Made by a program: the position numbers and the translations under genes
Assembly (NCBI GenBank): GCA_000002435.2
Contig: CM018793.1
Length of the DNA stretch: 64,000 bases
Source: Giardia intestinalis
Taxonomy: Eukaryota
Reading direction: 5' to 3' (one strand)
Part shown: positions 3,001 to 33,269 of the stretch, piece by piece
Layout of the letters: every line of letters begins with the position of its first letter
Position numbering within the stretch: the first letter of the stretch is position 1
The notes under the pieces: model-generated
Told to the model about the DNA's origin: nothing
Seen by the model: the letters and a program-made list of their open reading frames with translations, nothing else
Database searches by the model: none

Positions 3001-6000
3001 NNNNNNNNNNNNNNNNNNNNNNNNNNNNNNNNNNNNNNNNNNNNNNNNNNNNNNNNNNNNNNNNNNNNNNNNNNNNNNNNNNNNNNNNNNNNNNNNNNNN
3101 NNNNNNNNNNNNNNNNNNNNNNNNNNNNNNNNNNNNNNNNNNNNNNNNNNNNNNNNNNNNNNNNNNNNNNNNNNNNNNNNNNNNNNNNNNNNNNNNNNNN
3201 NNNNNNNNNNNNNNNNNNNNNNNNNNNNNNNNNNNNNNNNNNNNNNNNNNNNNNNNNNNNNNNNNNNNNNNNNNNNNNNNNNNNNNNNNNNNNNNNNNNN
3301 NNNNNNNNNNNNNNNNNNNNNNNNNNNNNNNNNNNNNNNNNNNNNNNNNNNNNNNNNNNNNNNNNNNNNNNNNNNNNNNNNNNNNNNNNNNNNNNNNNNN
3401 NNNNNNNNNNNNNNNNNNNNNNNNNNNNNNNNNNNNNNNNNNNNNNNNNNNNNNNNNNNNNNNNNNNNNNNNNNNNNNNNNNNNNNNNNNNNNNNNNNNN
3501 NNNNNNNNNNNNNNNNNNNNNNNNNNNNNNNNNNNNNNNNNNNNNNNNNNNNNNNNNNNNNNNNNNNNNNNNNNNNNNNNNNNNNNNNNNNNNNNNNNNN
3601 NNNNNNNNNNNNNNNNNNNNNNNNNNNNNNNNNNNNNNNNNNNNNNNNNNNNNNNNNNNNNNNNNNNNNNNNNNNNNNNNNNNNNNNNNNNNNNNNNNNN
3701 NNNNNNNNNNNNNNNNNNNNNNNNNNNNNNNNNNNNNNNNNNNNNNNNNNNNNNNNNNNNNNNNNNNNNNNNNNNNNNNNNNNNNNNNNNNNNNNNNNNN
3801 NNNNNNNNNNNNNNNNNNNNNNNNNNNNNNNNNNNNNNNNNNNNNNNNNNNNNNNNNNNNNNNNNNNNNNNNNNNNNNNNNNNNNNNNNNNNNNNNNNNN
3901 NNNNNNNNNNNNNNNNNNNNNNNNNNNNNNNNNNNNNNNNNNNNNNNNNNNNNNNNNNNNNNNNNNNNNNNNNNNNNNNNNNNNNNNNNNNNNNNNNNNN
4001 NNNNNNNNNNNNNNNNNNNNNNNNNNNNNNNNNNNNNNNNNNNNNNNNNNNNNNNNNNNNNNNNNNNNNNNNNNNNNNNNNNNNNNNNNNNNNNNNNNNN
4101 NNNNNNNNNNNNNNNNNNNNNNNNNNNNNNNNNNNNNNNNNNNNNNNNNNNNNNNNNNNNNNNNNNNNNNNNNNNNNNNNNNNNNNNNNNNNNNNNNNNN
4201 NNNNNNNNNNNNNNNNNNNNNNNNNNNNNNNNNNNNNNNNNNNNNNNNNNNNNNNNNNNNNNNNNNNNNNNNNNNNNNNNNNNNNNNNNNNNNNNNNNNN
4301 NNNNNNNNNNNNNNNNNNNNNNNNNNNNNNNNNNNNNNNNNNNNNNNNNNNNNNNNNNNNNNNNNNNNNNNNNNNNNNNNNNNNNNNNNNNNNNNNNNNN
4401 NNNNNNNNNNNNNNNNNNNNNNNNNNNNNNNNNNNNNNNNNNNNNNNNNNNNNNNNNNNNNNNNNNNNNNNNNNNNNNNNNNNNNNNNNNNNNNNNNNNN
4501 NNNNNNNNNNNNNNNNNNNNNNNNNNNNNNNNNNNNNNNNNNNNNNNNNNNNNNNNNNNNNNNNNNNNNNNNNNNNNNNNNNNNNNNNNNNNNNNNNNNN
4601 NNNNNNNNNNNNNNNNNNNNNNNNNNNNNNNNNNNNNNNNNNNNNNNNNNNNNNNNNNNNNNNNNNNNNNNNNNNNNNNNNNNNNNNNNNNNNNNNNNNN
4701 NNNNNNNNNNNNNNNNNNNNNNNNNNNNNNNNNNNNNNNNNNNNNNNNNNNNNNNNNNNNNNNNNNNNNNNNNNNNNNNNNNNNNNNNNNNNNNNNNNNN
4801 NNNNNNNNNNNNNNNNNNNNNNNNNNNNNNNNNNNNNNNNNNNNNNNNNNNNNNNNNNNNNNNNNNNNNNNNNNNNNNNNNNNNNNNNNNNNNNNNNNNN
4901 NNNNNNNNNNNNNNNNNNNNNNNNNNNNNNNNNNNNNNNNNNNNNNNNNNNNNNNNNNNNNNNNNNNNNNNNNNNNNNNNNNNNNNNNNNNNNNNNNNNN
5001 NNNNNNNNNNNNNNNNNNNNNNNNNNNNNNNNNNNNNNNNNNNNNNNNNNNNNNNNNNNNNNNNNNNNNNNNNNNNNNNNNNNNNNNNNNNNNNNNNNNN
5101 NNNNNNNNNNNNNNNNNNNNNNNNNNNNNNNNNNNNNNNNNNNNNNNNNNNNNNNNNNNNNNNNNNNNNNNNNNNNNNNNNNNNNNNNNNNNNNNNNNNN
5201 NNNNNNNNNNNNNNNNNNNNNNNNNNNNNNNNNNNNNNNNNNNNNNNNNNNNNNNNNNNNNNNNNNNNNNNNNNNNNNNNNNNNNNNNNNNNNNNNNNNN
5301 NNNNNNNNNNNNNNNNNNNNNNNNNNNNNNNNNNNNNNNNNNNNNNNNNNNNNNNNNNNNNNNNNNNNNNNNNNNNNNNNNNNNNNNNNNNNNNNNNNNN
5401 NNNNNNNNNNNNNNNNNNNNNNNNNNNNNNNNNNNNNNNNNNNNNNNNNNNNNNNNNNNNNNNNNNNNNNNNNNNNNNNNNNNNNNNNNNNNNNNNNNNN
5501 NNNNNNNNNNNNNNNNNNNNNNNNNNNNNNNNNNNNNNNNNNNNNNNNNNNNNNNNNNNNNNNNNNNNNNNNNNNNNNNNNNNNNNNNNNNNNNNNNNNN
5601 NNNNNNNNNNNNNNNNNNNNNNNNNNNNNNNNNNNNNNNNNNNNNNNNNNNNNNNNNNNNNNNNNNNNNNNNNNNNNNNNNNNNNNNNNNNNNNNNNNNN
5701 NNNNNNNNNNNNNNNNNNNNNNNNNNNNNNNNNNNNNNNNNNNNNNNNNNNNNNNNNNNNNNNNNNNNNNNNNNNNNNNNNNNNNNNNNNNNNNNNNNNN
5801 NNNNNNNNNNNNNNNNNNNNNNNNNNNNNNNNNNNNNNNNNNNNNNNNNNNNNNNNNNNNNNNNNNNNNNNNNNNNNNNNNNNNNNNNNNNNNNNNNNNN
5901 NNNNNNNNNNNNNNNNNNNNNNNNNNNNNNNNNNNNNNNNNNNNNNNNNNNNNNNNNNNNNNNNNNNNNNNNNNNNNNNNNNNNNNNNNNNNNNNNNNNN

Positions 6001-9000
6001 NNNNNNNNNNNNNNNNNNNNNNNNNNNNNNNNNNNNNNNNNNNNNNNNNNNNNNNNNNNNNNNNNNNNNNNNNNNNNNNNNNNNNNNNNNNNNNNNNNNN
6101 NNNNNNNNNNNNNNNNNNNNNNNNNNNNNNNNNNNNNNNNNNNNNNNNNNNNNNNNNNNNNNNNNNNNNNNNNNNNNNNNNNNNNNNNNNNNNNNNNNNN
6201 NNNNNNNNNNNNNNNNNNNNNNNNNNNNNNNNNNNNNNNNNNNNNNNNNNNNNNNNNNNNNNNNNNNNNNNNNNNNNNNNNNNNNNNNNNNNNNNNNNNN
6301 NNNNNNNNNNNNNNNNNNNNNNNNNNNNNNNNNNNNNNNNNNNNNNNNNNNNNNNNNNNNNNNNNNNNNNNNNNNNNNNNNNNNNNNNNNNNNNNNNNNN
6401 NNNNNNNNNNNNNNNNNNNNNNNNNNNNNNNNNNNNNNNNNNNNNNNNNNNNNNNNNNNNNNNNNNNNNNNNNNNNNNNNNNNNNNNNNNNNNNNNNNNN
6501 NNNNNNNNNNNNNNNNNNNNNNNNNNNNNNNNNNNNNNNNNNNNNNNNNNNNNNNNNNNNNNNNNNNNNNNNNNNNNNNNNNNNNNNNNNNNNNNNNNNN
6601 NNNNNNNNNNNNNNNNNNNNNNNNNNNNNNNNNNNNNNNNNNNNNNNNNNNNNNNNNNNNNNNNNNNNNNNNNNNNNNNNNNNNNNNNNNNNNNNNNNNN
6701 NNNNNNNNNNNNNNNNNNNNNNNNNNNNNNNNNNNNNNNNNNNNNNNNNNNNNNNNNNNNNNNNNNNNNNNNNNNNNNNNNNNNNNNNNNNNNNNNNNNN
6801 NNNNNNNNNNNNNNNNNNNNNNNNNNNNNNNNNNNNNNNNNNNNNNNNNNNNNNNNNNNNNNNNNNNNNNNNNNNNNNNNNNNNNNNNNNNNNNNNNNNN
6901 NNNNNNNNNNNNNNNNNNNNNNNNNNNNNNNNNNNNNNNNNNNNNNNNNNNNNNNNNNNNNNNNNNNNNNNNNNNNNNNNNNNNNNNNNNNNNNNNNNNN
7001 NNNNNNNNNNNNNNNNNNNNNNNNNNNNNNNNNNNNNNNNNNNNNNNNNNNNNNNNNNNNNNNNNNNNNNNNNNNNNNNNNNNNNNNNNNNNNNNNNNNN
7101 NNNNNNNNNNNNNNNNNNNNNNNNNNNNNNNNNNNNNNNNNNNNNNNNNNNNNNNNNNNNNNNNNNNNNNNNNNNNNNNNNNNNNNNNNNNNNNNNNNNN
7201 NNNNNNNNNNNNNNNNNNNNNNNNNNNNNNNNNNNNNNNNNNNNNNNNNNNNNNNNNNNNNNNNNNNNNNNNNNNNNNNNNNNNNNNNNNNNNNNNNNNN
7301 NNNNNNNNNNNNNNNNNNNNNNNNNNNNNNNNNNNNNNNNNNNNNNNNNNNNNNNNNNNNNNNNNNNNNNNNNNNNNNNNNNNNNNNNNNNNNNNNNNNN
7401 NNNNNNNNNNNNNNNNNNNNNNNNNNNNNNNNNNNNNNNNNNNNNNNNNNNNNNNNNNNNNNNNNNNNNNNNNNNNNNNNNNNNNNNNNNNNNNNNNNNN
7501 NNNNNNNNNNNNNNNNNNNNNNNNNNNNNNNNNNNNNNNNNNNNNNNNNNNNNNNNNNNNNNNNNNNNNNNNNNNNNNNNNNNNNNNNNNNNNNNNNNNN
7601 NNNNNNNNNNNNNNNNNNNNNNNNNNNNNNNNNNNNNNNNNNNNNNNNNNNNNNNNNNNNNNNNNNNNNNNNNNNNNNNNNNNNNNNNNNNNNNNNNNNN
7701 NNNNNNNNNNNNNNNNNNNNNNNNNNNNNNNNNNNNNNNNNNNNNNNNNNNNNNNNNNNNNNNNNNNNNNNNNNNNNNNNNNNNNNNNNNNNNNNNNNNN
7801 NNNNNNNNNNNNNNNNNNNNNNNNNNNNNNNNNNNNNNNNNNNNNNNNNNNNNNNNNNNNNNNNNNNNNNNNNNNNNNNNNNNNNNNNNNNNNNNNNNNN
7901 NNNNNNNNNNNNNNNNNNNNNNNNNNNNNNNNNNNNNNNNNNNNNNNNNNNNNNNNNNNNNNNNNNNNNNNNNNNNNNNNNNNNNNNNNNNNNNNNNNNN
8001 NNNNNNNNNNNNNNNNNNNNNNNNNNNNNNNNNNNNNNNNNNNNNNNNNNNNNNNNNNNNNNNNNNNNNNNNNNNNNNNNNNNNNNNNNNNNNNNNNNNN
8101 NNNNNNNNNNNNNNNNNNNNNNNNNNNNNNNNNNNNNNNNNNNNNNNNNNNNNNNNNNNNNNNNNNNNNNNNNNNNNNNNNNNNNNNNNNNNNNNNNNNN
8201 NNNNNNNNNNNNNNNNNNNNNNNNNNNNNNNNNNNNNNNNNNNNNNNNNNNNNNNNNNNNNNNNNNNNNNNNNNNNNNNNNNNNNNNNNNNNNNNNNNNN
8301 NNNNNNNNNNNNNNNNNNNNNNNNNNNNNNNNNNNNNNNNNNNNNNNNNNNNNNNNNNNNNNNNNNNNNNNNNNNNNNNNNNNNNNNNNNNNNNNNNNNN
8401 NNNNNNNNNNNNNNNNNNNNNNNNNNNNNNNNNNNNNNNNNNNNNNNNNNNNNNNNNNNNNNNNNNNNNNNNNNNNNNNNNNNNNNNNNNNNNNNNNNNN
8501 NNNNNNNNNNNNNNNNNNNNNNNNNNNNNNNNNNNNNNNNNNNNNNNNNNNNNNNNNNNNNNNNNNNNNNNNNNNNNNNNNNNNNNNNNNNNNNNNNNNN
8601 NNNNNNNNNNNNNNNNNNNNNNNNNNNNNNNNNNNNNNNNNNNNNNNNNNNNNNNNNNNNNNNNNNNNNNNNNNNNNNNNNNNNNNNNNNNNNNNNNNNN
8701 NNNNNNNNNNNNNNNNNNNNNNNNNNNNNNNNNNNNNNNNNNNNNNNNNNNNNNNNNNNNNNNNNNNNNNNNNNNNNNNNNNNNNNNNNNNNNNNNNNNN
8801 NNNNNNNNNNNNNNNNNNNNNNNNNNNNNNNNNNNNNNNNNNNNNNNNNNNNNNNNNNNNNNNNNNNNNNNNNNNNNNNNNNNNNNNNNNNNNNNNNNNN
8901 NNNNNNNNNNNNNNNNNNNNNNNNNNNNNNNNNNNNNNNNNNNNNNNNNNNNNNNNNNNNNNNNNNNNNNNNNNNNNNNNNNNNNNNNNNNNNNNNNNNN

Positions 9001-12000
9001 NNNNNNNNNNNNNNNNNNNNNNNNNNNNNNNNNNNNNNNNNNNNNNNNNNNNNNNNNNNNNNNNNNNNNNNNNNNNNNNNNNNNNNNNNNNNNNNNNNNN
9101 NNNNNNNNNNNNNNNNNNNNNNNNNNNNNNNNNNNNNNNNNNNNNNNNNNNNNNNNNNNNNNNNNNNNNNNNNNNNNNNNNNNNNNNNNNNNNNNNNNNN
9201 NNNNNNNNNNNNNNNNNNNNNNNNNNNNNNNNNNNNNNNNNNNNNNNNNNNNNNNNNNNNNNNNNNNNNNNNNNNNNNNNNNNNNNNNNNNNNNNNNNNN
9301 NNNNNNNNNNNNNNNNNNNNNNNNNNNNNNNNNNNNNNNNNNNNNNNNNNNNNNNNNNNNNNNNNNNNNNNNNNNNNNNNNNNNNNNNNNNNNNNNNNNN
9401 NNNNNNNNNNNNNNNNNNNNNNNNNNNNNNNNNNNNNNNNNNNNNNNNNNNNNNNNNNNNNNNNNNNNNNNNNNNNNNNNNNNNNNNNNNNNNNNNNNNN
9501 NNNNNNNNNNNNNNNNNNNNNNNNNNNNNNNNNNNNNNNNNNNNNNNNNNNNNNNNNNNNNNNNNNNNNNNNNNNNNNNNNNNNNNNNNNNNNNNNNNNN
9601 NNNNNNNNNNNNNNNNNNNNNNNNNNNNNNNNNNNNNNNNNNNNNNNNNNNNNNNNNNNNNNNNNNNNNNNNNNNNNNNNNNNNNNNNNNNNNNNNNNNN
9701 NNNNNNNNNNNNNNNNNNNNNNNNNNNNNNNNNNNNNNNNNNNNNNNNNNNNNNNNNNNNNNNNNNNNNNNNNNNNNNNNNNNNNNNNNNNNNNNNNNNN
9801 NNNNNNNNNNNNNNNNNNNNNNNNNNNNNNNNNNNNNNNNNNNNNNNNNNNNNNNNNNNNNNNNNNNNNNNNNNNNNNNNNNNNNNNNNNNNNNNNNNNN
9901 NNNNNNNNNNNNNNNNNNNNNNNNNNNNNNNNNNNNNNNNNNNNNNNNNNNNNNNNNNNNNNNNNNNNNNNNNNNNNNNNNNNNNNNNNNNNNNNNNNNN
10001 NNNNNNNNNNNNNNNNNNNNNNNNNNNNNNNNNNNNNNNNNNNNNNNNNNNNNNNNNNNNNNNNNNNNNNNNNNNNNNNNNNNNNNNNNNNNNNNNNNNN
10101 NNNNNNNNNNNNNNNNNNNNNNNNNNNNNNNNNNNNNNNNNNNNNNNNNNNNNNNNNNNNNNNNNNNNNNNNNNNNNNNNNNNNNNNNNNNNNNNNNNNN
10201 NNNNNNNNNNNNNNNNNNNNNNNNNNNNNNNNNNNNNNNNNNNNNNNNNNNNNNNNNNNNNNNNNNNNNNNNNNNNNNNNNNNNNNNNNNNNNNNNNNNN
10301 NNNNNNNNNNNNNNNNNNNNNNNNNNNNNNNNNNNNNNNNNNNNNNNNNNNNNNNNNNNNNNNNNNNNNNNNNNNNNNNNNNNNNNNNNNNNNNNNNNNN
10401 NNNNNNNNNNNNNNNNNNNNNNNNNNNNNNNNNNNNNNNNNNNNNNNNNNNNNNNNNNNNNNNNNNNNNNNNNNNNNNNNNNNNNNNNNNNNNNNNNNNN
10501 NNNNNNNNNNNNNNNNNNNNNNNNNNNNNNNNNNNNNNNNNNNNNNNNNNNNNNNNNNNNNNNNNNNNNNNNNNNNNNNNNNNNNNNNNNNNNNNNNNNN
10601 NNNNNNNNNNNNNNNNNNNNNNNNNNNNNNNNNNNNNNNNNNNNNNNNNNNNNNNNNNNNNNNNNNNNNNNNNNNNNNNNNNNNNNNNNNNNNNNNNNNN
10701 NNNNNNNNNNNNNNNNNNNNNNNNNNNNNNNNNNNNNNNNNNNNNNNNNNNNNNNNNNNNNNNNNNNNNNNNNNNNNNNNNNNNNNNNNNNNNNNNNNNN
10801 NNNNNNNNNNNNNNNNNNNNNNNNNNNNNNNNNNNNNNNNNNNNNNNNNNNNNNNNNNNNNNNNNNNNNNNNNNNNNNNNNNNNNNNNNNNNNNNNNNNN
10901 NNNNNNNNNNNNNNNNNNNNNNNNNNNNNNNNNNNNNNNNNNNNNNNNNNNNNNNNNNNNNNNNNNNNNNNNNNNNNNNNNNNNNNNNNNNNNNNNNNNN
11001 NNNNNNNNNNNNNNNNNNNNNNNNNNNNNNNNNNNNNNNNNNNNNNNNNNNNNNNNNNNNNNNNNNNNNNNNNNNNNNNNNNNNNNNNNNNNNNNNNNNN
11101 NNNNNNNNNNNNNNNNNNNNNNNNNNNNNNNNNNNNNNNNNNNNNNNNNNNNNNNNNNNNNNNNNNNNNNNNNNNNNNNNNNNNNNNNNNNNNNNNNNNN
11201 NNNNNNNNNNNNNNNNNNNNNNNNNNNNNNNNNNNNNNNNNNNNNNNNNNNNNNNNNNNNNNNNNNNNNNNNNNNNNNNNNNNNNNNNNNNNNNNNNNNN
11301 NNNNNNNNNNNNNNNNNNNNNNNNNNNNNNNNNNNNNNNNNNNNNNNNNNNNNNNNNNNNNNNNNNNNNNNNNNNNNNNNNNNNNNNNNNNNNNNNNNNN
11401 NNNNNNNNNNNNNNNNNNNNNNNNNNNNNNNNNNNNNNNNNNNNNNNNNNNNNNNNNNNNNNNNNNNNNNNNNNNNNNNNNNNNNNNNNNNNNNNNNNNN
11501 NNNNNNNNNNNNNNNNNNNNNNNNNNNNNNNNNNNNNNNNNNNNNNNNNNNNNNNNNNNNNNNNNNNNNNNNNNNNNNNNNNNNNNNNNNNNNNNNNNNN
11601 NNNNNNNNNNNNNNNNNNNNNNNNNNNNNNNNNNNNNNNNNNNNNNNNNNNNNNNNNNNNNNNNNNNNNNNNNNNNNNNNNNNNNNNNNNNNNNNNNNNN
11701 NNNNNNNNNNNNNNNNNNNNNNNNNNNNNNNNNNNNNNNNNNNNNNNNNNNNNNNNNNNNNNNNNNNNNNNNNNNNNNNNNNNNNNNNNNNNNNNNNNNN
11801 NNNNNNNNNNNNNNNNNNNNNNNNNNNNNNNNNNNNNNNNNNNNNNNNNNNNNNNNNNNNNNNNNNNNNNNNNNNNNNNNNNNNNNNNNNNNNNNNNNNN
11901 NNNNNNNNNNNNNNNNNNNNNNNNNNNNNNNNNNNNNNNNNNNNNNNNNNNNNNNNNNNNNNNNNNNNNNNNNNNNNNNNNNNNNNNNNNNNNNNNNNNN

Positions 12001-23438: not shown

Positions 23439-25772
23439 CTACTCTGAGAGGATGGCTAGTATCTCGCTATTGCCCTCGGCTATGTCCAAGAGCTTCCTCC
23501 TGTTTATGTTCTTCTCCTTCTCTGCGAGGAGTCTCACACACTCTATCTGGCTGCAGGATACTGCCCACATGAGGGCGGTCCATCCGTCACTATCCTGCAT
23601 CCCACCCTCCTTCTCCAAGAGCAGCGCGACGTGGGCAGAGTGACCTTCCTTTGCTGCAGCCATAAGAGCTGTCTGTCCATTGTTACTTCTCATACTTCCT
23701 TCCTTTTCTAGTAGGAGCTTAAAACAGTCTGTGCTACCATACCTTGCTGCAAGCATAAGGGCTGTTTCGCCATCCTCATTCCGCATCCCGCCCTCCTTCT
23801 CTAGCAATATTCTAGTGCAGCCTGCGTGGCCACTCTCTGCTGCCCTTATGAGGGCTGTCCATCCAAAAATATCCTGCATGCCTGCCTCTTCCTCTAGGAG
23901 CAGCTCCACTATCTCTGCGTGGCCACGTGCTGCTGCCAGCGTGAGGGCTGTCTCGCTACTATCACTCTTCATCCCGCCCTCCTTCTCTAGTAGGAGCCTG
24001 ACGCACTCTGGGTGGCCACTCTCTGCCGCCCCCATGAGGGCGGTCCGTCCAAACCCATCCTGTACCCCGCCCTCCCTCTTTAGCAATAGTCTAACACAGT
24101 CTCCGTGACCTCCCTCTGCTGCAAACACAAGGGCGGTCCGTCCATAGCTGTCTTGTACCCCGCCCTCCTTCTCCAAGAGTATGTCCACTATCTCTCCATG
24201 GCCCTCCTCTGCTGCCCGCATGAGGGCGGTATCGCCAGCAGCAAGTAAATACGTCATCACCCTCCGTTCCTCCAGCATACTCCGTTCCACGAGCCCTTTC
24301 GTGATCGCCATGTCCACTTTCATGCCCCCCTCTTTCTCCAGTAATAGCTTGACGCACTCTGGGTGGCCCCTCTCTGCCGCCCGCATGAGGGCGGTCCATC
24401 CGTCACGATCCTTCATCCCCGCCTCCTGAAGGCTACTCCTCACTGCATCAGCATCTCCAATGTAAGCAGCATACATAAGGCTCGTCCAGCCCGAGGCAGC
24501 ACGCTCACGGTCGTTTCCCACCAGTAGCTTAACACAGTCTTGCTTGTCATTCTGCTCTGCTGTCACGAGGGCTGTCACCCCATCACTAGTCTGCATCCCG
24601 CCCTCCCTCTCCAGGAGCAGCGCGACACATTCTCTGTGGCCTTCTTTTGCTGCAAGCACGAGGGCAGTCTGGCCGTCACTATCCTTCATGCCCGCCTCCT
24701 TCTCCACGAGCAGCTCCACTATCTCTGCGTGGCCTTCCTCTGCCGTCCTTATGAGAGCGGTCTCGCCATACCTATCCCGCATCCCGCCCTCCTTCTTTAC
24801 TAGTAGTCTAACACAATCTGAATGGTTTCTCTCTGCTGCCAGCATGAGGGCGGTTTCGCCATCCTCATTCTGCACGCCTCCCTCCTTCTCCAGGAGCAGC
24901 TCCACTATCTCTGCGTGGCCACGGACTGCTGCCCTCATAAGGGCTGTTCCCTCGCTGATGGCCCAGCAGCCCATCGCGACATCCCCCGTCGCCTTCTGTC
25001 CCCCCTGGAGAGGAAGGAGGGCCTTCACAGTATCTACATCATTTCTGTCAACAGCTCGCATGAGGGCAGTGACGCCATTCTCATCTGTGGGATCGAGGAG
25101 CTCCACGACGTCCTTGTGCCTCGCTCTGGCAGCAATCATCAGTGCGGTATTGCCGTCATTGTTCCTCTTGTCCTTGTCTGAGAGGTGTTCCTTGACTGTT
25201 GTGACGTCCCCCGTGAAGGACGCGCACATGAGAGGGGTCCACGAGGGGGCCTCATGCTCGCGAAGAAGCAGAGCTATGTCTGTGTGCTTGTTCCTGAGGG
25301 CGTGCACGAAGGCCGTGTTACCGTCCTTGTCCTTCAGCCCCTTCTCATGGTCAAGAAGGAGCTTTACTACTTCAAGGCTCCCCTGCTGTGCGGCGATCAT
25401 CAGGGCGGTGCGACCGTTATTGTCTTCTTTTCTATGCTCATGAGGGACGAGGATCCTAGCTGCCTCGGGATGGTTCCTATGTGCGGCGTGCATGAGCGCG
25501 GTCCAGCCGTTCTTGTCCCTGAGACCCTTCTCCTTCTCAACAAGCAGCTCAACGGGGCCAGTGTGCCCCTGCTGGGCTGCATGCATGAGGGCTGTCATTC
25601 CCTGCTTATCACGCTGGCCGGTGACTCCCTCTTCAAGTAGCACCCGGACGGTCTCTGTGTCATTCGTGTGTGCAGCACGGACCAGCTTGGGTAGCAGGTG
25701 AGCCTCAGGTTGAAGGGTAATCGTAGCTGCTGCGCCACTGAGTTGCATAACCTGACCTTCTCGTGCCTGCAT
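23439..25772 (-). CDS. Ankyrin-repeat protein with about 23 tandem 33-aa ANK units (Giardia 21.1-like); probably the C-terminal part of a NEK-kinase/ankyrin gene, see findings
   Basis: The 777-aa ORF repeats the motif DxxGxTALMxAAxxGHxExVxLLLEKEGGM throughout. It starts with ATG at 25772 and stops with TAG at 23439-23441. An AGTAAAC motif on the coding strand lies at about 23425-23431, just after the stop. Confidence 0.85.
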   Translation of the reverse strand: MQAREGQVMQLSGAAATITLQPEAHLLPKLVRAAHTNDTETVRVLLEEGVTGQRDKQGMTALMHAAQQGHTGPVELLVEKEKGLRDKNGWTALMHAAHRNHPEAARILVPHEHRKEDNNGRTALMIAAQQGSLEVVKLLLDHEKGLKDKDGNTAFVHALRNKHTDIALLLREHEAPSWTPLMCASFTGDVTTVKEHLSDKDKRNNDGNTALMIAARARHKDVVELLDPTDENGVTALMRAVDRNDVDTVKALLPLQGGQKATGDVAMGCWAISEGTALMRAAVRGHAEIVELLLEKEGGVQNEDGETALMLAAERNHSDCVRLLVKKEGGMRDRYGETALIRTAEEGHAEIVELLVEKEAGMKDSDGQTALVLAAKEGHRECVALLLEREGGMQTSDGVTALVTAEQNDKQDCVKLLVGNDRERAASGWTSLMYAAYIGDADAVRSSLQEAGMKDRDGWTALMRAAERGHPECVKLLLEKEGGMKVDMAITKGLVERSMLEERRVMTYLLAAGDTALMRAAEEGHGEIVDILLEKEGGVQDSYGRTALVFAAEGGHGDCVRLLLKREGGVQDGFGRTALMGAAESGHPECVRLLLEKEGGMKSDSSETALTLAAARGHAEIVELLLEEEAGMQDIFGWTALIRAAESGHAGCTRILLEKEGGMRNEDGETALMLAARYGSTDCFKLLLEKEGSMRSNNGQTALMAAAKEGHSAHVALLLEKEGGMQDSDGWTALMWAVSCSQIECVRLLAEKEKNINRRKLLDIAEGNSEILAILSE
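23480..25650. repeat. DNA-level homogenised tandem repeats of about 99 bp (ankyrin-coding units)
   Basis: Identical stretches of 23-30 nt recur in different units. CATGAGGGCGGTCCATCCGTCAC occurs at 23568 and 24383. GAGCAGCTCCACTATCTCTGCGTGGCC occurs at about 23898, 24708 and 24896 (plus-strand reading). Confidence 0.7.
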
Positions 25773-26887
25773 TGTGGATAAGTATTTTTTGTCCGGCCTT
25801 CAAGAGCGTCAATCCCAGGGGTCTTGAGTCGAGGCTCCTGTCCTAGGGAGCTGGTCTTGCTTGGCCTGTTCTCGAGGGCTGCCTCAAGAGCAGTGACCTT
25901 ATCCGACTCGACCTTGAGCTCGTCCTTCAGAAGCACGATATTAGCATTAGCGCCATTCAGCGCAGCCTCCAAAACGCTGCACTTGTCCTCTAGTGCCACA
26001 CACCGATGTCCCAGCTCACTAACTGGGATGTCGAATGTGGCGAGCGTCTCGTGCAGCTCCCTGGCTGTCGGCCTCCTCTCTGGCTCCAGCACGAATATCC
26101 GCTCCAGAACACTCTTTATGAAGCCGTCGGTGACACCGCTCAGGTCCGGCCTCCACCCGTCGACGAAGACGTCTTTTGGGTCTTTACCTTCTAGGAAGTC
26201 CGGTCTCCTCAGAGTTACTAATTCATAAATGATGACCCCGAGGCTCCATACGTCGGAGGCGGGGCTGGCCTCGTTGTGGAGGAGCACCTCGGGGGCCACG
26301 TATACTGCCGTGCTTACAATGGTGCTCCCGCATCTCAGGGCGTCCTTGCAGAGGCCGAGGCCAGCGATGACGAAGTACTCACCATCTGCGCTGATGAGGA
26401 CGTTGGCAGGCCTGAGGTCGCGGTGGACAAATCCATTAACACTTACCCCATTGACGCCGTGGAGGTAGGCGAGGGCGGCAGCGATCTGCCTCAGGACGGA
26501 GAGGACCACGCCGGCAGACATGGGGATCTTCCTTCGCTTGTGCTCAGTGAGGAGGCGCTCGAGGGTCTTGTCGTGGCGATTCATGACGACGTAGATGAGG
26601 CCCTCGCCTTCGACTACTTGATGGTGCTTGAGAACCCCCGGGTTGGAGAGGTCAAGAAGAGCGGCCAGCTCGAGCCTGATGGCGCCTAAATCCCTCTTAT
26701 CCGGGCCATCGAGGAGGATCTCCTTCACAGCGAGGCTCGGATGGCCCCTAAGGGAGTAGACTGTCCCCATGGTGCTTTCATTAAGCACACTGCCCAACCG
26801 CCTGTGGAGCTTCTTACGAGTGAATTGTGGGATGGCGGGGGCTGCTGCAGGGGGGCTGGCTGCCGTCGGCCATGAAGTTTGTTTCAA
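25595..26887 (-). CDS. NEK-like Ser/Thr protein kinase domain plus coiled coil, with degenerate catalytic motifs (probable pseudokinase); the frame is disrupted at both ends
   Basis: The kinase fold is recognisable from VAIK-like SLAVKEI, HRDLRPANVL, APE (VAPEVL) and DVWSLGVIIYEL. The motifs are degenerate. The Gly loop reads LGSVLNESTMGTVY, the HRDLKPxN lysine is replaced by Arg, and DFG is replaced by GLG (VIAGLGLCK). A heptad-like coiled coil follows the kinase (LEDKCSVLEAALNGANANIVLLKDELKVESDKVTALEAALEN). The annotated start is TTG. The nearest A/T-rich initiator plus ATG (minus-strand 26873) is out of frame by one base across a G6 run (26850-26855). The 3' end runs 177 nt into the ankyrin ORF in a different frame. 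Confidence 0.7.
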   Translation of the reverse strand: MKQTSWPTAASPPAAAPAIPQFTRKKLHRRLGSVLNESTMGTVYSLRGHPSLAVKEILLDGPDKRDLGAIRLELAALLDLSNPGVLKHHQVVEGEGLIYVVMNRHDKTLERLLTEHKRRKIPMSAGVVLSVLRQIAAALAYLHGVNGVSVNGFVHRDLRPANVLISADGEYFVIAGLGLCKDALRCGSTIVSTAVYVAPEVLLHNEASPASDVWSLGVIIYELVTLRRPDFLEGKDPKDVFVDGWRPDLSGVTDGFIKSVLERIFVLEPERRPTARELHETLATFDIPVSELGHRCVALEDKCSVLEAALNGANANIVLLKDELKVESDKVTALEAALENRPSKTSSLGQEPRLKTPGIDALEGRTKNTYPQCRHEKVRLCNSVAQQLRLPFNLRLTCYPSWSVLHTRMTQRPSGCYLKRESPASVISRE

Positions 26888-27548
26888 AAATCGTTCACTC
26901 TGCCCACTAGTACTTGCAAGGCTATGTTATAGGGCCCTCTGCGGGTGTAGTCGAGGCGCACACAAGCATGGCTGCCTCTTCAGAGACAGGGGTGTCGCCC
27001 TTCAAGGCCGGGGTTCTTCATCAATGCTCCACACTGGCGTCAGCATGCTGCTGGAATCTCTGGGCTGTTCCTGTCCAGTCGATGCGTGCGTGCCAGAACG
27101 CTTGGTTTCCATCCTTTCCGCCGCGCTAGAGTCACGCTGGCCTTGATCGGCCGCTCTCTCCTCAATTGGTCTCATCTGCTTGGCAAGGACCACAGAGGTT
27201 GGCTGGAAGCGTCGCTTGGAAGGAATCGAGTGGCCGGCTCTCGAGCGTCACCCGACGAGCTTCGTTGGGCATTCGTTTCCGAGCCGGCAACATTGACGGC
27301 CGCAGAGCTCCTGGGCGTTCCTCGATCAGGGATGGGCCGAGCTGCTCGGTTCGTGGCCTCTTGTCCATTCCTCGTTATCGGGCACAGTTAGCCACCAAGC
27401 GGTCTACATATGCTGTTCGAGCCACACCTACAACAAGCCAGCGGCACAGCGCTAGAGCAGCCGTTAAGTCGAGCGAATCACCCCAAGCAGATGCTCAGAT
27501 CTGTCCCGCGCTCAGAGGTCAGTGTCCCTCCACCTCTTGCCCATTATT

Positions 27549-30500
27549 TCATTGGGGTCCTGCACTCCGTCCAAGGGGCTGCTGCGCCGCGCGAAGCTTC
27601 ATGGCCCGAACCGTCCACGAGTCCCCCTTCCGCTCAAGCAGGCGACCCGTGAGGCCTGTGGCTTTGAGGAGGGTTCCAGGATCGCCCTGGGACGTAGGCG
27701 CAATGACTGGCCGCCGCGATGCCAGAAGCTGGCGGGTCACACCGAGCAGGTCCGCCTCTTCCACACTGTTACCCAGCGTCCCTGTCTGCTGCATGCTTTG
27801 AAGAATGACTGTGTCTACGCGATCCCCTGCAGAGCTCTCCGGCGCATATGTCCACGGGTATGCGCACGCAGGCGGGGCCTCAAGACGCATAGGTGGAGGG
27901 GGGTCCTGGAAGACTTGACTGGGCACTTCTTCGAGGTCTTCGATGGACAGCCTGGCTGTGTCTGCCAGTCCACTCTCTGAGGACTTTTGCCCGGAGCGTG
28001 CGGTAAGAGGCACGCCGAAAAGAGAGTCCCATCCCTTCGGAGGCGGGTCAAGATTGACTCTCTGAACAATGCCGAGGAGCTGGGCCCCGTCCAAGCCCCA
28101 CAGAGCTACTCGTTTGTCCCCGCCTATCGAAATGTATGCCTGGCTGTTGGAAGCAGCCGGAGAAAGCAGGCTAATGGGGGCGGCGTGAGCACGGTGGACG
28201 TACCGTACCCGGAGATACGAAGACGGAACGATTGGCGACGTCTTCCCAGAGCTCGGGGTATGAAGAAGACCCTTAGGGAGCTGCTGCGTGTCGAGACTGC
28301 GTGTGATCCCCAGAGCAGCTATCAGATTCTGAATCTTGTAGAGGGTCACAAAGCCTGCGTCGTCCCCGACCAGGATAGAGTGGGCGCCGTCCACAAAGCA
28401 GACAGCTGTCGGCATGGTGCGAGCAGAGAGAGCAAGAACGGACTCCTTCCGGACTGGCACTCTCACCTTGGTTCTGTCCCTGAAGACGTATTGATAGAGA
28501 ATGCCGTTTTCCTCTGCTTCCACGTCCTCCATCCCGGGCCGCGTCACAGCGGACCCCATCATGGTGCCATAAAGAGACGCATGGGCGTCTGCGTATTGCG
28601 CAGCCGCCGGACTCTCCACGTCAACGCCGGACGTCTTAAAGCGCGACTTAGAAAAGTCCTCGATCACCTTGCTGGACTTGTCGGAGAGCTTCACCGCTCC
28701 CTGAGGCACTTTGCGGCGAGAGGCGGCCTGCCTTGGCTGACTGGTGCCCAGCGGAACAGGAAGGAAGTCAACGTAGACCCTCCGAGGAGCAGCTAAGAAG
28801 CGCGTGAAGTAGAAAGAAACAAGCATTATCACCTGAGCAGCAGCCCGAATCTTCATAAGCGTTCTGCGCCGACGGGCTTGAAGGCCTCGGAAGTTCTGGG
28901 AAATGGGGACGTATCGGCGAAGGAGTGCCATTGTTGCAGAGACAATCTCTTGGTAAGACGGACCCGGCATTCTGGTGTGCGCACGCTCTGACCTTTCTTC
29001 CAAGTCGTCCTGTACACCGACGGTCTCCTGCTGGAGATGGCACAGAGATTGGCCTTCTTCAGTAGCCGCTGTGGATTCTTGGACCGTGATGTACGCATAG
29101 CGGTTGGAAACAGTATGCCTCTCAAACATCGATGGAGGCTGGACTGTTCCGGAAGCGGCCTCTCCCTCCCTATCGGTTGTCATCGAGGCGTCCATGGAGG
29201 GCGTTGCAGTCGACGCCTGGAGGTCTCCGACTCGCGCCCCGTAGGCCGTTTTCGTGGAAAGCAGACGATTGGCACGGAACTCCCCGTCAATCGACCGCAG
29301 AGCCTCGTCCCCGGGCACAGGGCCCTTACGTTCGGGGCAGTACTTTGTGTGGAGGAGATCTGGAGAAAAGTTTTCTATCAGGTAGCGAACCACGTCCTCG
29401 TATCTACTCCCATACAACTGGACGTCTGAATTGAAATCAGAGAGGGGCAGAAGGGCGTGCTTCAAGAATCCAGCTGTCTGGACCCAGCCGGCCTGAAAGT
29501 CTGCATTCAGTGGATAGCCCAGGGGATGGTAGCTTCCGTGGTAAAAGGCGCAGACGAGCGAAAAGTTCGGGTACAGCGGGCGGACCGCGTGGATGTAGCA
29601 GATGCCAGAGGCCGACGCCGAAAACAGAAGGGGCCACTGTCCCAGGAAGCAGAGGGCCGTTATGGGGGAGCCAACAGACGGGATTGTCGGGGGCTGGATC
29701 ACCCCCTGCTGCAGCAGCTTGACAGACATCGTGTCGTGGACGAGAATCCGGCCGTCAGAGGTGCCTATGGCCAGCAGAGACAGCTCCTCCGAGGCGTCAA
29801 TGCACGTCACGTACGAGTCACTTCGAGCCTTCTTTGCATGCCCGGTGTAGAGAACGTCGCAGAGCAGTTTCTGGATCGGAGACGGCGCCTGATTCGGCTG
29901 TCCTGCTGAAGAGACATCTCGGGCCCACAGGAACTCGGGGCAAAAGCGTCTTACAACCTCCGGCTTTGAAGAGAGGTCGTCTGCGCCTACAAACACGGGC
30001 TTCGACGAAAAGAACGCCGTGAGCTGCTGCCGTGCCCTTGCAAAGTGGTCTGCTCCTCCTGCAAAAAAGATGTCGAAGGTCGTCAGCTGCCTCGACAGCC
30101 CTATCTTGTTCACGTACTCGTGGCTCGGCTTCATGTCTATGGCGCGCACAATTTGCGGGTTGAGGTTGTCGCAGAGGAAGAGAAGGCCGCGCGCTCTGTC
30201 GGTGGCCAAGATTTGTGCGCGCATTATCGACTTGTCGGAAAGCAGCTGTCTCACAAAGGCTGCGTTGTTGGCCTTGACGATGATCTGAGACAGATTGAGC
30301 CCCAGGCTGTACGAGGAAGCTCCGGACGACATGTGCGAGTCGGCCCCTGCAGAAGGCTCCCTCTGTGCGTCGCCCAGTCTTTGGCCATCAAACGGGTTGT
30401 CGACGATGTCAATGTCGTCTTCGCATGTCCTCCGGCCGGTAATCCCAACGTTGGATATGTCGAAGAGAGAGCCGGTCTTCCAGTAAAGTGTCACTGCACC

Positions 30501-33269
30501 GTGAGTTCCTATGACGTAAAGAACGCGTCCCTTGCTGTCGACGGCGAGGGACAGAATCCGCCGCCCGAGGGCGTCGAGCAGAGACTGGGGGGCGTCGGGG
30601 GCGCTGGGGATCTGGCTGAGGATCTGCGGTGGCTTGTGGAGCGTCCTATATCGGGCTTCGTCGTCTGGAGTGGAAAAGTGGAGATCGGCCTCCGTCACCT
30701 CGCTCTGGCCCTCTGCGTAGAATTTCGAGAGGTCGCACGTCTCGATGCTTGCATACTCCGAACCCAGTACGGCATCCTGTGCGTCATCGCCACCGCTGCC
30801 TGTGCCGTCTCGGCCCTCCAGAAGCGTCTTGGAGATCCTTGCAATGTCGTAGATCCTGGACGGCCGGCCGGTAAGAAGCGAGAAGATCGTCACTTCCCCA
30901 GGGCCTGTGACGGCGCCAAGCTCGTTCATGCGCTGGTTGACGACAACGCCGGCGCACTCCTTGCTGATAGACCCCAGGGGAAGATGCTCGGGCGCGTGCT
31001 TGATCAGCTCCTTCGGCCTGCGCTTGCCCAGTGCCCGCTGCTCCTCCTCGCGCTTCGCGTCCTCAAAGTCCCAGACCACCTGCTCCTTGGCCAGCTCCTC
31101 GTTGGCAACCACCTTGAGGACGAACAGCCGGCGCCCGAAGGGGATGTAGCCGAAGTCGTGCTTGCGGCTATAGACCCCGGTGCCGACCTTGACTCCGTGC
31201 AGGTTGATGGCGATGTCGATCCGCGTGATGTGCGCACCCGTCAGTGCATGGATGAGGGTCACCACGTTGTCGTGGTCAATAACGCCAACAACGTTCCCGA
31301 AAGCGAACGACGCCAGAATAGGCTTGCCCGGCCTGGGCGGCTGGACAAGGGTGATCAGGTGCGCGGACTTCACGAGGTTGGCCTTCACGAGCCTCTTGTC
31401 AGAAACCTGCACGGCCTCGCGCCTCCTCTTCCCGCGCCTATCGTCCTCGCCGTCCACCCGGGCGGGGTCGTCCTCGAGCTCCTCCTTTGTCACGGCCATC
31501 CCCAAGTGGCAGGAGCGGACCGCCTCCGGGCCAATCTGGTAGACGTTGCTGAAGCCAATGGTTGTGATGTGATCGCTGACGACGTAGCACCGCATGATCC
31601 CCTCCGGGTGCAAGTCCGAGAACGTGCAGACGACCCCCAGGTCCTCGTCCAGAATGACGAGCGCGGCATCGGAGCCCACGACGGCTAGCCGGAACAGGCC
31701 GTCTGCCATGGCCTCCTCCCACTGGCCGCGCCCGGCGTCCATGCACCTGACGCTCCCCGCGACCACATACTTGGTGGTGACAAACTCGGCCCGGATCGTC
31801 AGATGCACGCCCCCGTGGCGCTTCTCGTGCGTTGCCGCGGCGACGGGGTCTGGGGCCACGGTCGCCTTGACAAAGGCCAGGGGGTCGTCGGCGATGAGCT
31901 GCGTCTCCTTGATTCCGTGGCTGAGAAGTGTGCTCTGCCCGGCGTCAAAGATCTGCGATGTGATGAGGCTCACGACCTCAAGGTCTTCGGAGGCCATGGC
32001 GATGAGCTGCTTGGACTTCCCTCGGAGCCGCTCCTTCTCCTGGGAGGACCTCTGCAGCGCCTCCGCGGTGCTCTTGGAGACGTCTATCAACGACGACCGG
32101 AGCTCCGGGTACACCTTCAAGAGCTCCTCCCGCGTCAGCGAGTCGAAGGAGCGGCCCTTTCCGAGGATCTGCATGGCAGCATCTACGGTGGTGCTGGCCA
32201 GAGAGGGCTGCCTGGAGTTCCCCGTGTTGCTGGGGTCTTCTGAAAGGTTTATCCCGCCAGCAAACTGTGGGGCGTCTGGGTCCCTTTCGTAGGCCAGCGC
32301 GTAAATGCTAACATTGCCAGATGCGTGGCCTATGTAGAGCCGGGACCGTGCTTCGTGCCAGAACAGACACGTCCCAGGGGACTGGAGCCGGAAGGGATCG
32401 GAGATGGCCATGTTTCCGGTGAGCGAAAAGACGATGAAGAGGGGCTCTCGCGTGCAAAGGACGATAAGCGGGAGAGGGGACATCCTGACAGAACACGTTA
32501 TGGTGCTGGAGCTCGTTATCCGCTTGTTCTGCATGTCCTGGAGAATTGCTCGGCGGCTCGTGGGGGCGGCATCAGGCACGGCAGACAGGAGCGACTGCTC
32601 TCTGACTGCATTTGCGTCTATGCCCATGGACTCGAGCCGCTTGTAGGCCTTCGCTTCAAGTCTTTCCTGCGCCCGCTGGTCCAACTGCACTTTGAAGAGC
32701 TCCTCCGGGTTCCCCGCCAAGACAGAGGCCTTGGGCTCGAAGATGAGGCGCGGATACATAAACTGGGAATCCGCCATGTAAACACCAAGGTCTGTGACAA
32801 GATAGTAGGCGTCCCCTATGATATACATGTTGAGGATGATGGACCCCTTCACGTCTGTGAGCTCGGCGTTATTTGGTATAGCCGACTCCACGGAGACTAA
32901 AGACGTCTTCCCAGAAACACCTGTCGCTGTTCGCATCAGTGACTGGAAAATGCTCTTATCTGTGAAGTCCTTATGCTGTTCGACATCCAAGTGGGCGCTC
33001 GAGACCTCGGAATAAAACCCGATAAAGTCGTACCACGTAACGAAACCGTCAAGATCCGTGTCTAGCTCCTCGAAAAGATCTATCAGCGCCTTGGAGATCC
33101 CTTCGAGCGAGACCTGATTGCCTGTGTAGGAGCGCGGCACAAAAGTCTGAATGGTTCTGGAGAGAAAGTCGAGCGTCACCTTGCGCCCATAGAAGAGCTT
33201 GCGAATGGTCTCCAGGTCTGCGGGATCGATTAGCTTGACGAGGTCAAGGGCCGTCTCGACAAGTGCCAT
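27549..33269 (-). CDS. Giant 1906-aa protein with an N-terminal EF-hand-like loop and WD40/beta-propeller-like segments; function unknown (possibly axonemal or Ca-regulated)
   Basis: The long intron-free ORF has an ATG start. The EF-hand loop is DTDLDGFVTWYDF near the N-terminus. WD-like strands include LLAIGTSDGRILVHD, LLFSASASGICYIHAV and IGHASGNVSIYAL. The antisense ORF 30045..31688 is a shadow. Confidence 0.75.
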   Translation of the reverse strand: MALVETALDLVKLIDPADLETIRKLFYGRKVTLDFLSRTIQTFVPRSYTGNQVSLEGISKALIDLFEELDTDLDGFVTWYDFIGFYSEVSSAHLDVEQHKDFTDKSIFQSLMRTATGVSGKTSLVSVESAIPNNAELTDVKGSIILNMYIIGDAYYLVTDLGVYMADSQFMYPRLIFEPKASVLAGNPEELFKVQLDQRAQERLEAKAYKRLESMGIDANAVREQSLLSAVPDAAPTSRRAILQDMQNKRITSSSTITCSVRMSPLPLIVLCTREPLFIVFSLTGNMAISDPFRLQSPGTCLFWHEARSRLYIGHASGNVSIYALAYERDPDAPQFAGGINLSEDPSNTGNSRQPSLASTTVDAAMQILGKGRSFDSLTREELLKVYPELRSSLIDVSKSTAEALQRSSQEKERLRGKSKQLIAMASEDLEVVSLITSQIFDAGQSTLLSHGIKETQLIADDPLAFVKATVAPDPVAAATHEKRHGGVHLTIRAEFVTTKYVVAGSVRCMDAGRGQWEEAMADGLFRLAVVGSDAALVILDEDLGVVCTFSDLHPEGIMRCYVVSDHITTIGFSNVYQIGPEAVRSCHLGMAVTKEELEDDPARVDGEDDRRGKRRREAVQVSDKRLVKANLVKSAHLITLVQPPRPGKPILASFAFGNVVGVIDHDNVVTLIHALTGAHITRIDIAINLHGVKVGTGVYSRKHDFGYIPFGRRLFVLKVVANEELAKEQVVWDFEDAKREEEQRALGKRRPKELIKHAPEHLPLGSISKECAGVVVNQRMNELGAVTGPGEVTIFSLLTGRPSRIYDIARISKTLLEGRDGTGSGGDDAQDAVLGSEYASIETCDLSKFYAEGQSEVTEADLHFSTPDDEARYRTLHKPPQILSQIPSAPDAPQSLLDALGRRILSLAVDSKGRVLYVIGTHGAVTLYWKTGSLFDISNVGITGRRTCEDDIDIVDNPFDGQRLGDAQREPSAGADSHMSSGASSYSLGLNLSQIIVKANNAAFVRQLLSDKSIMRAQILATDRARGLLFLCDNLNPQIVRAIDMKPSHEYVNKIGLSRQLTTFDIFFAGGADHFARARQQLTAFFSSKPVFVGADDLSSKPEVVRRFCPEFLWARDVSSAGQPNQAPSPIQKLLCDVLYTGHAKKARSDSYVTCIDASEELSLLAIGTSDGRILVHDTMSVKLLQQGVIQPPTIPSVGSPITALCFLGQWPLLFSASASGICYIHAVRPLYPNFSLVCAFYHGSYHPLGYPLNADFQAGWVQTAGFLKHALLPLSDFNSDVQLYGSRYEDVVRYLIENFSPDLLHTKYCPERKGPVPGDEALRSIDGEFRANRLLSTKTAYGARVGDLQASTATPSMDASMTTDREGEAASGTVQPPSMFERHTVSNRYAYITVQESTAATEEGQSLCHLQQETVGVQDDLEERSERAHTRMPGPSYQEIVSATMALLRRYVPISQNFRGLQARRRRTLMKIRAAAQVIMLVSFYFTRFLAAPRRVYVDFLPVPLGTSQPRQAASRRKVPQGAVKLSDKSSKVIEDFSKSRFKTSGVDVESPAAAQYADAHASLYGTMMGSAVTRPGMEDVEAEENGILYQYVFRDRTKVRVPVRKESVLALSARTMPTAVCFVDGAHSILVGDDAGFVTLYKIQNLIAALGITRSLDTQQLPKGLLHTPSSGKTSPIVPSSYLRVRYVHRAHAAPISLLSPAASNSQAYISIGGDKRVALWGLDGAQLLGIVQRVNLDPPPKGWDSLFGVPLTARSGQKSSESGLADTARLSIEDLEEVPSQVFQDPPPPMRLEAPPACAYPWTYAPESSAGDRVDTVILQSMQQTGTLGNSVEEADLLGVTRQLLASRRPVIAPTSQGDPGTLLKATGLTGRLLERKGDSWTVRAMKLRAAQQPLGRSAGPQ

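Follow-up and report, generated by a model that had tools for sequence, protein, structure and literature searches.

A subtelomeric Nek-GL4 kinase and ankyrin locus of Giardia intestinalis is very probably a genuine pseudogene broken by two small deletions

Gene content of the locus

We analyzed a window of 64,000 nucleotides (the whole stretch of DNA considered here; contig CM018793.1 of assembly GCA_000002435.2) from Giardia intestinalis WB (ATCC 50803; 2020 assembly), where it lies at the subtelomeric 5′ end of chromosome 5, and focused on two overlapping open reading frames (ORFs) on its minus strand, one encoding a NEK-type protein kinase domain and the other a long array of ankyrin repeats. 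By alignment with intact relatives, both ORFs can be traced to a single gene of the Nek-GL4 subfamily, and the locus is very probably a genuine unitary pseudogene remnant of that gene, broken by an 11-bp deletion near the start and a 1-bp deletion in the linker. The features of the locus, in the order of the coding strand, are as follows.

26881..26892, minus strand: AT-rich element GATTTTTGAAAC, directly upstream of the ancestral start and conserved before the ATG in intact paralogues
25595..26887, minus strand: kinase ORF, 430 amino acids counted from a TTG
26859..26873, minus strand: ancestral start and first five codons (ATG GCC GAC GGC AGC, MADGS), now off the kinase-ORF frame
26858..26859, minus strand: junction of the 11-bp deletion, where the AACCACGCATT-type segment of the paralogues is gone
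26850..26855, minus strand: C6 run (G6 on the plus strand), of native length and not a lesion
26768..26770, minus strand: internal ATG, start of the present 391-amino-acid "Kinase, NEK" model (KAE8304594.1 / XP_037902123.1; exact look-up)
26054..26767, minus strand: protein kinase domain (Pkinase, Pfam PF00069, E=1.7e-31), the profile being entered only at position 13 of 263
25791..26053, minus strand: linker after the kinase domain, homologous by alignment to the part of family members that is annotated as coiled coil
25785..25790, minus strand: A6 run (T6 on the plus strand; kinase-frame A_AAA_AAT), site of the 1-nucleotide loss between the kinase and ankyrin frames
25595..25784, minus strand: out-of-frame end of the kinase ORF, with 63 non-homologous residues and a stop, overlapping the start of the ankyrin frame
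23439..25784, minus strand: ankyrin-frame coding remnant, with linker, a TALM-type ankyrin array of about 23 repeats and, at its C-terminus, the family ending ...INRRKLLDIAEGNSEILAILSE
23439..25772, minus strand: ankyrin ORF, 777 amino acids, first ATG at 25772, N-terminus EGQVMQLSGAAATITLQPEAHLLPK
23428..23434, minus strand: polyadenylation signal AGTAAAC, directly after the ankyrin stop (pattern scan)

The two ORFs share 178 nucleotides in different frames. An earlier reading of the letters alone (hereafter the sequence-only reading) had described the ORF coordinates, the T6 and G6 runs and an out-of-frame ATG at 26873, and all of these statements were verified. That ATG is preceded by ATTTTTGAAACAAACTTC / GATTTTTGAAACAAACTTC and lies one base off the frame of the kinase ORF, and reading from it ends after 19 codons. 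Removing one C and adding one A yields an unbroken product of 1144 amino acids, in which the N-terminus and the junction quoted by the sequence-only reading are reproduced exactly. Within the overlap, the ankyrin frame is collinear, at 54% identity (E=1e-20), with residues 381-443 of P0001, the nearest intact paralogue. BLASTP of the kinase-frame tail against P0001 showed no similarity (best E=8.7), so that the claim of a meaningful ankyrin frame alongside a featureless kinase frame stands. The ankyrin ORF has no stops in its own frame along its 2.3 kb, versus 40 and 46 in the other two same-strand frames, and the open frame is thus not a product of composition.

The kinase half is clearly a member of its subfamily, as its top matches are all Giardia "Kinase, NEK" proteins. 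It keeps the AVK lysine and an HRD motif (HRDLRPAN), its DFG motif has become GLG, and the domain is therefore predicted to be catalytically dead. The same locus was listed by Manning et al. 2011 (Genome Biol 12:R66, PMC3218828; Additional file 1) as G084/GK135, a Nek-GL4 without GiardiaDB ID and a "Dead Nek - missing D184". About 70% of Giardia Neks are without the catalytic K, the D of HRD or the D of DFG, and these residues are optional for the family. The sequence-only reading had called the linker a coiled coil, and coiled-coil regions have been reported in some family members (Manning 2011). The internal ATG at 26770, from which the present model starts, sits within kinase subdomain I and is not conserved, being a T in isolate DH and a T or an A in the paralogues.

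The ankyrin frame is open from KYLST onward, and its first ATG, at 25772, is preceded by AAAAAATACTTAT, with an A-rich stretch 8-20 nucleotides upstream. Pfam Ank_2 matches this frame in 13 stretches (E=3.5e-174). We counted 22 TALM-type repeat starts plus one leading partial repeat, in agreement with the 23 ankyrin repeats noted before. The 777-amino-acid ORF has no exact entry in the collection of 5.8 billion proteins that we searched, and since it is absent there, it is not annotated as a protein.

One ancestral Nek-GL4 gene

Many intact Giardia Neks of 1145-1157 amino acids share the same kinase, linker and ankyrin architecture, and in a 12-sequence protein alignment, the window is collinear with its paralogues across both breaks. 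The family N-terminus reads MADG or MTGS followed by (S)PPAAAP.IPQFT, which the window matches with MADGS in the frame of the ATG and with PPAAAPAIPQFT in the kinase frame; the MADG/MTGS N-termini of the paralogues also bear out the ATG at 26873 as the start codon of the family. At the second break, the paralogues read ...DALEDQCKEYSAMIKALE..., and in the window, DALEGRTK belongs to the kinase frame and KYLSTMQARE to the ankyrin frame. Because this split falls at the A-run, the frame switch is located there, as the sequence-only reading had proposed. On this alignment evidence, the two ORFs can be taken as shown to descend from one Nek-GL4 gene of kinase, linker and about 23 TALM-ankyrin repeats, and the earlier proposal of a single NEK-kinase/ankyrin gene holds. 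The statement that a kinase with an ankyrin array is the dominant Nek architecture in Giardia is likewise correct, accounting for 67% of Neks (PMC3218828).

No intact or variant copy of the gene at 90% identity or above was found among the 5.8 billion proteins besides the 391-amino-acid model, the best other match being P0001 with 73% identity. As the P0121 cluster has one member and there is no match at or above 90%, alternative-start or repaired variants cannot be in this collection. Metagenome contigs scanned with a run-length-tolerant pattern gave 0 matches.

Two deletions separate start, kinase and ankyrin array

To place the 5′ lesion, we aligned the window at the nucleotide level with the intact paralogue loci L009 (an ENA assembly), L010 (isolate DH) and L011 (P15). 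Each of these three loci carries 11 additional nucleotides after codon 5, ahead of the CAG in front of the C-run, and the run itself matches the paralogues base for base: the intact P15 locus has the identical CAGCCCCCC, coding T-S-P-P, and the same six Cs are present at the orthologous DH locus and in contigs L001, L003 and L004. Since the paralogues carry 11 extra nucleotides while C6 is unchanged, the real 5′ frameshift is the 11-bp deletion, and the one-base lesion that the sequence-only reading had placed in the G6/C6 run is not borne out. The orthologous DH (A2) contig (L008, AHGT01000084.1) has the same CAGCCCCCC, the same deletion and the same out-of-frame ATG. The deletion, being common to WB and DH, is thus older than the A1/A2 split.

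At the 3′ site, the paralogues read AAG GAA/GAG CAT versus AAA AA- TAC in the window, so that one nucleotide has been lost. This lesion was placed with L010 and L011; L009, which encodes P0007, has its own 7-codon deletion in the linker. The nearest paralogue has K-E-Y at this site, and comparison with it suggests that the G of a Glu codon may have been lost (AAA GAA TAC to AAAAAATAC), a loss that would itself have created A6, making the homopolymer the product and not the cause; a slip from A7 to A6 may have occurred instead. The sequence-only reading was accordingly right about the position of the lesion at A6, and its view of the homopolymer as the cause was not upheld, as A6 may result from the deletion. 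The locus shows how a plausible homopolymer repair can name the wrong lesion when paralogue DNA is ignored. In a separate observation at the same spot, the otherwise intact P0007 (L009, ENA ERZ19219916, NODE_9801, around position 1650) is without the 7-codon KEYSAMI-type linker, and this short stretch seems indel-prone across the family.

Transcription signals of the unit

Alignment of the window, DH and the three intact paralogue loci showed that the AT-rich element is conserved, and it is probably the promoter/initiator region of the family; the A-rich start-codon context of Giardia genes (PMC7000408) is the ground for the initiator assignment. On the minus strand, the motif AGTRAAY occurs in the unit only at 26893-26899, just upstream of the promoter region, and at 23428-23434, and a minus-strand pattern scan found none after the kinase stop. 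AGTRAAY is the polyadenylation signal of Giardia. As the copy at 23428-23434 is the sole such motif from 26893 down to 23428, the whole unit has a single 3′ end signal.

The locus in isolate DH

Collinearity between DH and the window is limited to positions 36000 to 26696 (97.4% identity), with a breakpoint about 180 nucleotides into the kinase ORF, and as collinearity stops there, this isolate informs the 5′ site only. The identity between WB and DH falls sharply over the last ~100 nucleotides before the breakpoint. Past it, DH (L008 16575-24853) has unrelated DNA, which includes the following.

L008 18346-18891: reverse-transcriptase fragment (RVT_1, E=1.1e-12)
L008 23653-24852: VSP gene

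DH thus lacks most of the Nek locus, which suggests that it is dispensable.

A probably decayed gene and the alternatives

The domain order of kinase followed by TALM-ankyrin repeats is present in the DNA but split over two frames, with the start codon in a third register, and because the kinase, the ankyrin array and the start stand in separate registers, the locus qualifies only as a GL4 pseudogene. Measured against the three intact loci, its frame is broken by the 11-nucleotide and 1-nucleotide deletions. We therefore consider it very probable that the locus is a genuine unitary Nek-GL4 pseudogene remnant, and genuine decay was one of the two alternatives that the sequence-only reading had offered. 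In outline, the ancestor would have encoded an N-terminal pseudokinase, a linker and about 23 TALM-ankyrin repeats, ~1148 amino acids in all, and would have suffered two germline mutations. The 11-bp deletion after codon 5 separates the kinase frame from the family's promoter and start codon, and the 1-bp linker deletion, probably the loss of a Glu-codon G that gave rise to A6, cuts off the ankyrin array. A single promoter-like element and a single poly(A) signal remain, and the locus is probably transcribed weakly into one RNA; translation from the ATG at 26873 would end after 19 codons, and no full-length protein would be made. We infer this transcript structure and the lack of functional products, and the decay was presumably recent, since the ankyrin frame is still stop-free.

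Several observations weigh against this interpretation. The ankyrin frame is open for 777 codons versus 40-46 stops elsewhere, which could mean continuing selection, and the A-rich stretch upstream of the ATG at 25772 makes independent expression conceivable. The kinase part counts as a gene both in the present annotation and in Manning 2011. Nor is the region silent: L001, L003 and L004 begin in the upstream gene and reach the kinase ORF, and a low value is listed for G084 in serial analysis of gene expression (SAGE; Manning 2011). Moreover, the length of the A-run beyond the reference is known indirectly, from the frame-preserving translation of a protein from a Sanger assembly. The locus is probably weakly transcribed, which does not separate the hypotheses.

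One alternative is a gene fission, which we regard as unlikely. A dead-kinase protein would be made from the ATG at 26770, and a stand-alone ankyrin protein of the Protein 21.1 / ARP-1 type from the ATG at 25772, transcribed from the A-rich stretch made by the deletion. Consistent with this, the ankyrin ORF is intact over 777 codons, with an ATG of its own after AAAAAATACTTAT, the kinase part is a gene in both annotations, and WB has kinase-only Neks of 376-464 amino acids as well as 267 ankyrin-only ARP-1 genes. Transitions from Nek to 21.1 do happen, as 20 Protein 21.1 genes carry N-terminal cryptic remnants of a kinase (Manning 2011). However, a start at 26770, which is not conserved in DH or the paralogues, drops the beginning of the kinase fold (Pfam position 13), and the kinase ORF ends in 63 out-of-frame residues and is without its own poly(A) signal. 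DH has other DNA in place of most of the locus, which thus seems dispensable, the protein collection has no entry for the ankyrin ORF, and a young pseudogene is itself expected to keep an open frame. It is similarly doubtful that the locus is a snapshot of fission in progress, in which the 1-bp deletion also made an initiator-like A-rich stretch and turned the 777-amino-acid array into a newborn Protein 21.1 / ARP-1 gene. If true, this would be a direct example of Neks seeding the large ankyrin-only family of Giardia, and there is no new biology here unless the ankyrin ORF is expressed.

Very improbable is an assembly or sequencing artefact, in which homopolymer length errors in the PacBio-based reference would hide a real gene of one ~1144-amino-acid ORF. 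Both sites named by the sequence-only reading are 6-base homopolymers, PacBio RS II makes indels of this kind (as seen in the Xu 2020 draft), and the region is subtelomeric and rich in paralogues, where short-read polishing can fail. Yet the 5′ lesion is an 11-bp deletion and not C6, and both C6 and the deletion recur in DH and in three short-read assemblies: the Logan contigs L001, L003 and L004 (SRR10368409, SRR10368407 and SRR3602125), three separate assemblies from public read sets, are base-identical to the window through 26850-26855. An intact version is in none of the searched collections. A further line of evidence comes from GiardiaDB release 2.3, which we take to be the 2007 Sanger shotgun assembly. 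G084/GK135 was predicted from that release (Manning 2011, PMC3218828), and its translation, HSLASTSGQSERFLKQTSWPTAASPPAAAPAIPQFT...GRTKNTYPQCRHEKVRLCNSVAQ..., also with ...SERFLKQTSWPTAASPPAAAP... and ...GRTKNTYPQCRHEK..., has the same frames at both sites as the window. Finally, Xu et al. 2020 noticed homopolymer frameshifts from PacBio and fixed 85 indels with 100x Illumina coverage. As far as comparison of sequences can go, both lesions are thus shown to be real in the genome, and an assembly error fails at both sites. Confirmation of A6 and G6 as given, one half of what the sequence-only reading had named as refuting its proposal, has, as far as the error alternative goes, largely been obtained from the independent assemblies and the Sanger-era translation.

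L003 and L004, which come from unrelated projects, both end at exactly 26759. This shared end is most likely a de Bruijn graph branch arising from stretches common to paralogous Neks; because such stretches branch the graph, short-read assemblies fragment in the Nek family.

A programmed −1 frameshift on A_AAA_AAU that joins kinase to ankyrin (...GRTKNYLSTMQ...), maybe with +1 slippage at CCC_CCC_U near the start, is scarcely credible: the heptamer is in register (ACA AAA AAT) and a −1 shift lands in the intact ankyrin frame and restores a linker of paralogue length, but the RNA downstream of it is no more stably folded than shuffled sequence (z=−0.38 for 133 nucleotides and +0.47 for 84 nucleotides), the intact paralogues read AAG GAA/GAG CAT in one frame, making the heptamer a by-product of the deletion, no orthologue with the slippery heptamer was found in DH, the protein collection or the metagenome contigs, and the 5′ break would still need a second recoding event or an internal start. 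We know of no case of programmed frameshifting in a cellular gene of Giardia, though no literature search was aimed at this, and the candidate was rejected for want of a stable structure 5-9 nucleotides downstream and of a conserved signal.

Chromosomal setting

Positions 1-19888 of the window are N, a gap of 19,888 bases, and the pseudogene locus lies between partial ribosomal RNA (rRNA) genes and a large protein-coding gene.

19889-21118, minus strand: small-subunit rRNA, directly after the N gap and extending into it
22296-23347, minus strand: 3′ half of the large-subunit rRNA (Rfam model positions 1891-3399), starting 92 bp past the ankyrin stop
27549-33269, minus strand: GL50803_0060028 (1906 amino acids), the upstream neighbour gene (exact protein look-up)

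The partial rRNAs mark an abrupt junction between chromosome-unique DNA and truncated ribosomal DNA (rDNA) at the chromosome 5 5′ end, and Xu et al. 2020 described this end as the biggest piece absent from their assembly. Because their gap falls here, the locus is both subtelomeric and rDNA-proximal, which agrees with the earlier placement of the gene as subtelomeric.

Contigs L007 and L005 (from SRR17933277 and SRR10063827) stop at ~26895 and ~26882, with a poly(A) run in L005 directly after AGTGAACGATTTTTGAAA, which suggests that the mRNA of the upstream gene stops shortly ahead of the Nek start region. Published papers identify SRR17933277 as strand-specific WB RNA-seq; SRR10063827 is probably RNA-seq as well, being next to SRR10063826, an RNA-seq run used by Xu et al. 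For GL50803_0060028, the RNA-derived contigs L005, L006 and L007 end at ~26882-26898, and the poly(A) of L005 follows AGTGAAC...TTTTTGAAA. These ends imply a 3′ untranslated region of ~665 nucleotides, which is very long for Giardia, and place the poly(A) site next to the conserved AT-rich start region of the Nek family.

A paralogue of this neighbour with >90% identity, GL50803_00113673 (1649 amino acids), lies on a 1.54-Mb contig that also holds P0001, the nearest Nek paralogue, and isolate DH has both a 1906-amino-acid and a 1641-amino-acid form of the GL50803_0060028-type protein. The two pairs (0060028/113673 and the Neks) suggest an old segmental duplication between two chromosome ends.

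Annotation and comparison with known systems

The 391-amino-acid model KAE8304594.1 has its start within the kinase domain and 63 out-of-frame residues at its end, and the 2.3-kb ankyrin remnant has no protein entry, so that a correction of the annotation is called for. The proper annotation is a single pseudogene with a conceptual product of ~1144-1148 amino acids, which should be taken out of kinome counts. G084/GK135 (the 391-amino-acid NEK) and the downstream ankyrin ORF as one disrupted gene, and the nature of its lesions, appear to be without record in the literature compared.

Compared with its intact paralogues, the window copy shares the domain order of P0001 (WB, 985 amino acids, 1.54-Mb contig), and, from P15, P0003 (1157 amino acids) and P0006 (1145 amino acids), together with the MADG/MTGS N-terminus, the TALM-ankyrin array, a C-terminus of the form ...INRxKLL..GN.EI.AILS and the AT-rich element before the ATG. 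Its identity to P0001 is 73% over the first 640 residues. Whereas these paralogues are uninterrupted, the window copy is without 11 nucleotides after codon 5 and 1 nucleotide in the linker, and where P0001 keeps DFG (IADFG), the window copy has AGLG.

Taken alone, the 777-amino-acid ORF looks like a typical Protein 21.1 / ARP-1, which consists of TALM-ankyrin repeats only, and some Protein 21.1 proteins carry cryptic kinase remnants and are hence Nek-derived. Unlike in that family, the kinase part here is still fully recognisable directly upstream of the ORF, with which it shares strand and transcription unit.

The closest likeness is to the known Nek-GL4 pseudogenes of WB. Manning et al. 2011 reported 30 Nek pseudogenes in this strain, 29 of them GL4, under "rampant gene duplication and pseudogenization", and Xu et al. 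2020 annotated 306 pseudogenes in total. With the former (e.g., 114495_mod), the locus shares its subfamily, its strain, fragmented ORFs that can be extended to longer conceptual proteins, and a rapid, strain-specific turnover. Unlike those 30, it was counted in that study as a "dead Nek" member of the kinome, with no ankyrin repeats recorded. Overall, the locus is an ordinary pseudogene, one more case of a known kind, and adds a further example of the high rate of birth and death of GL4 Neks at Giardia chromosome ends.

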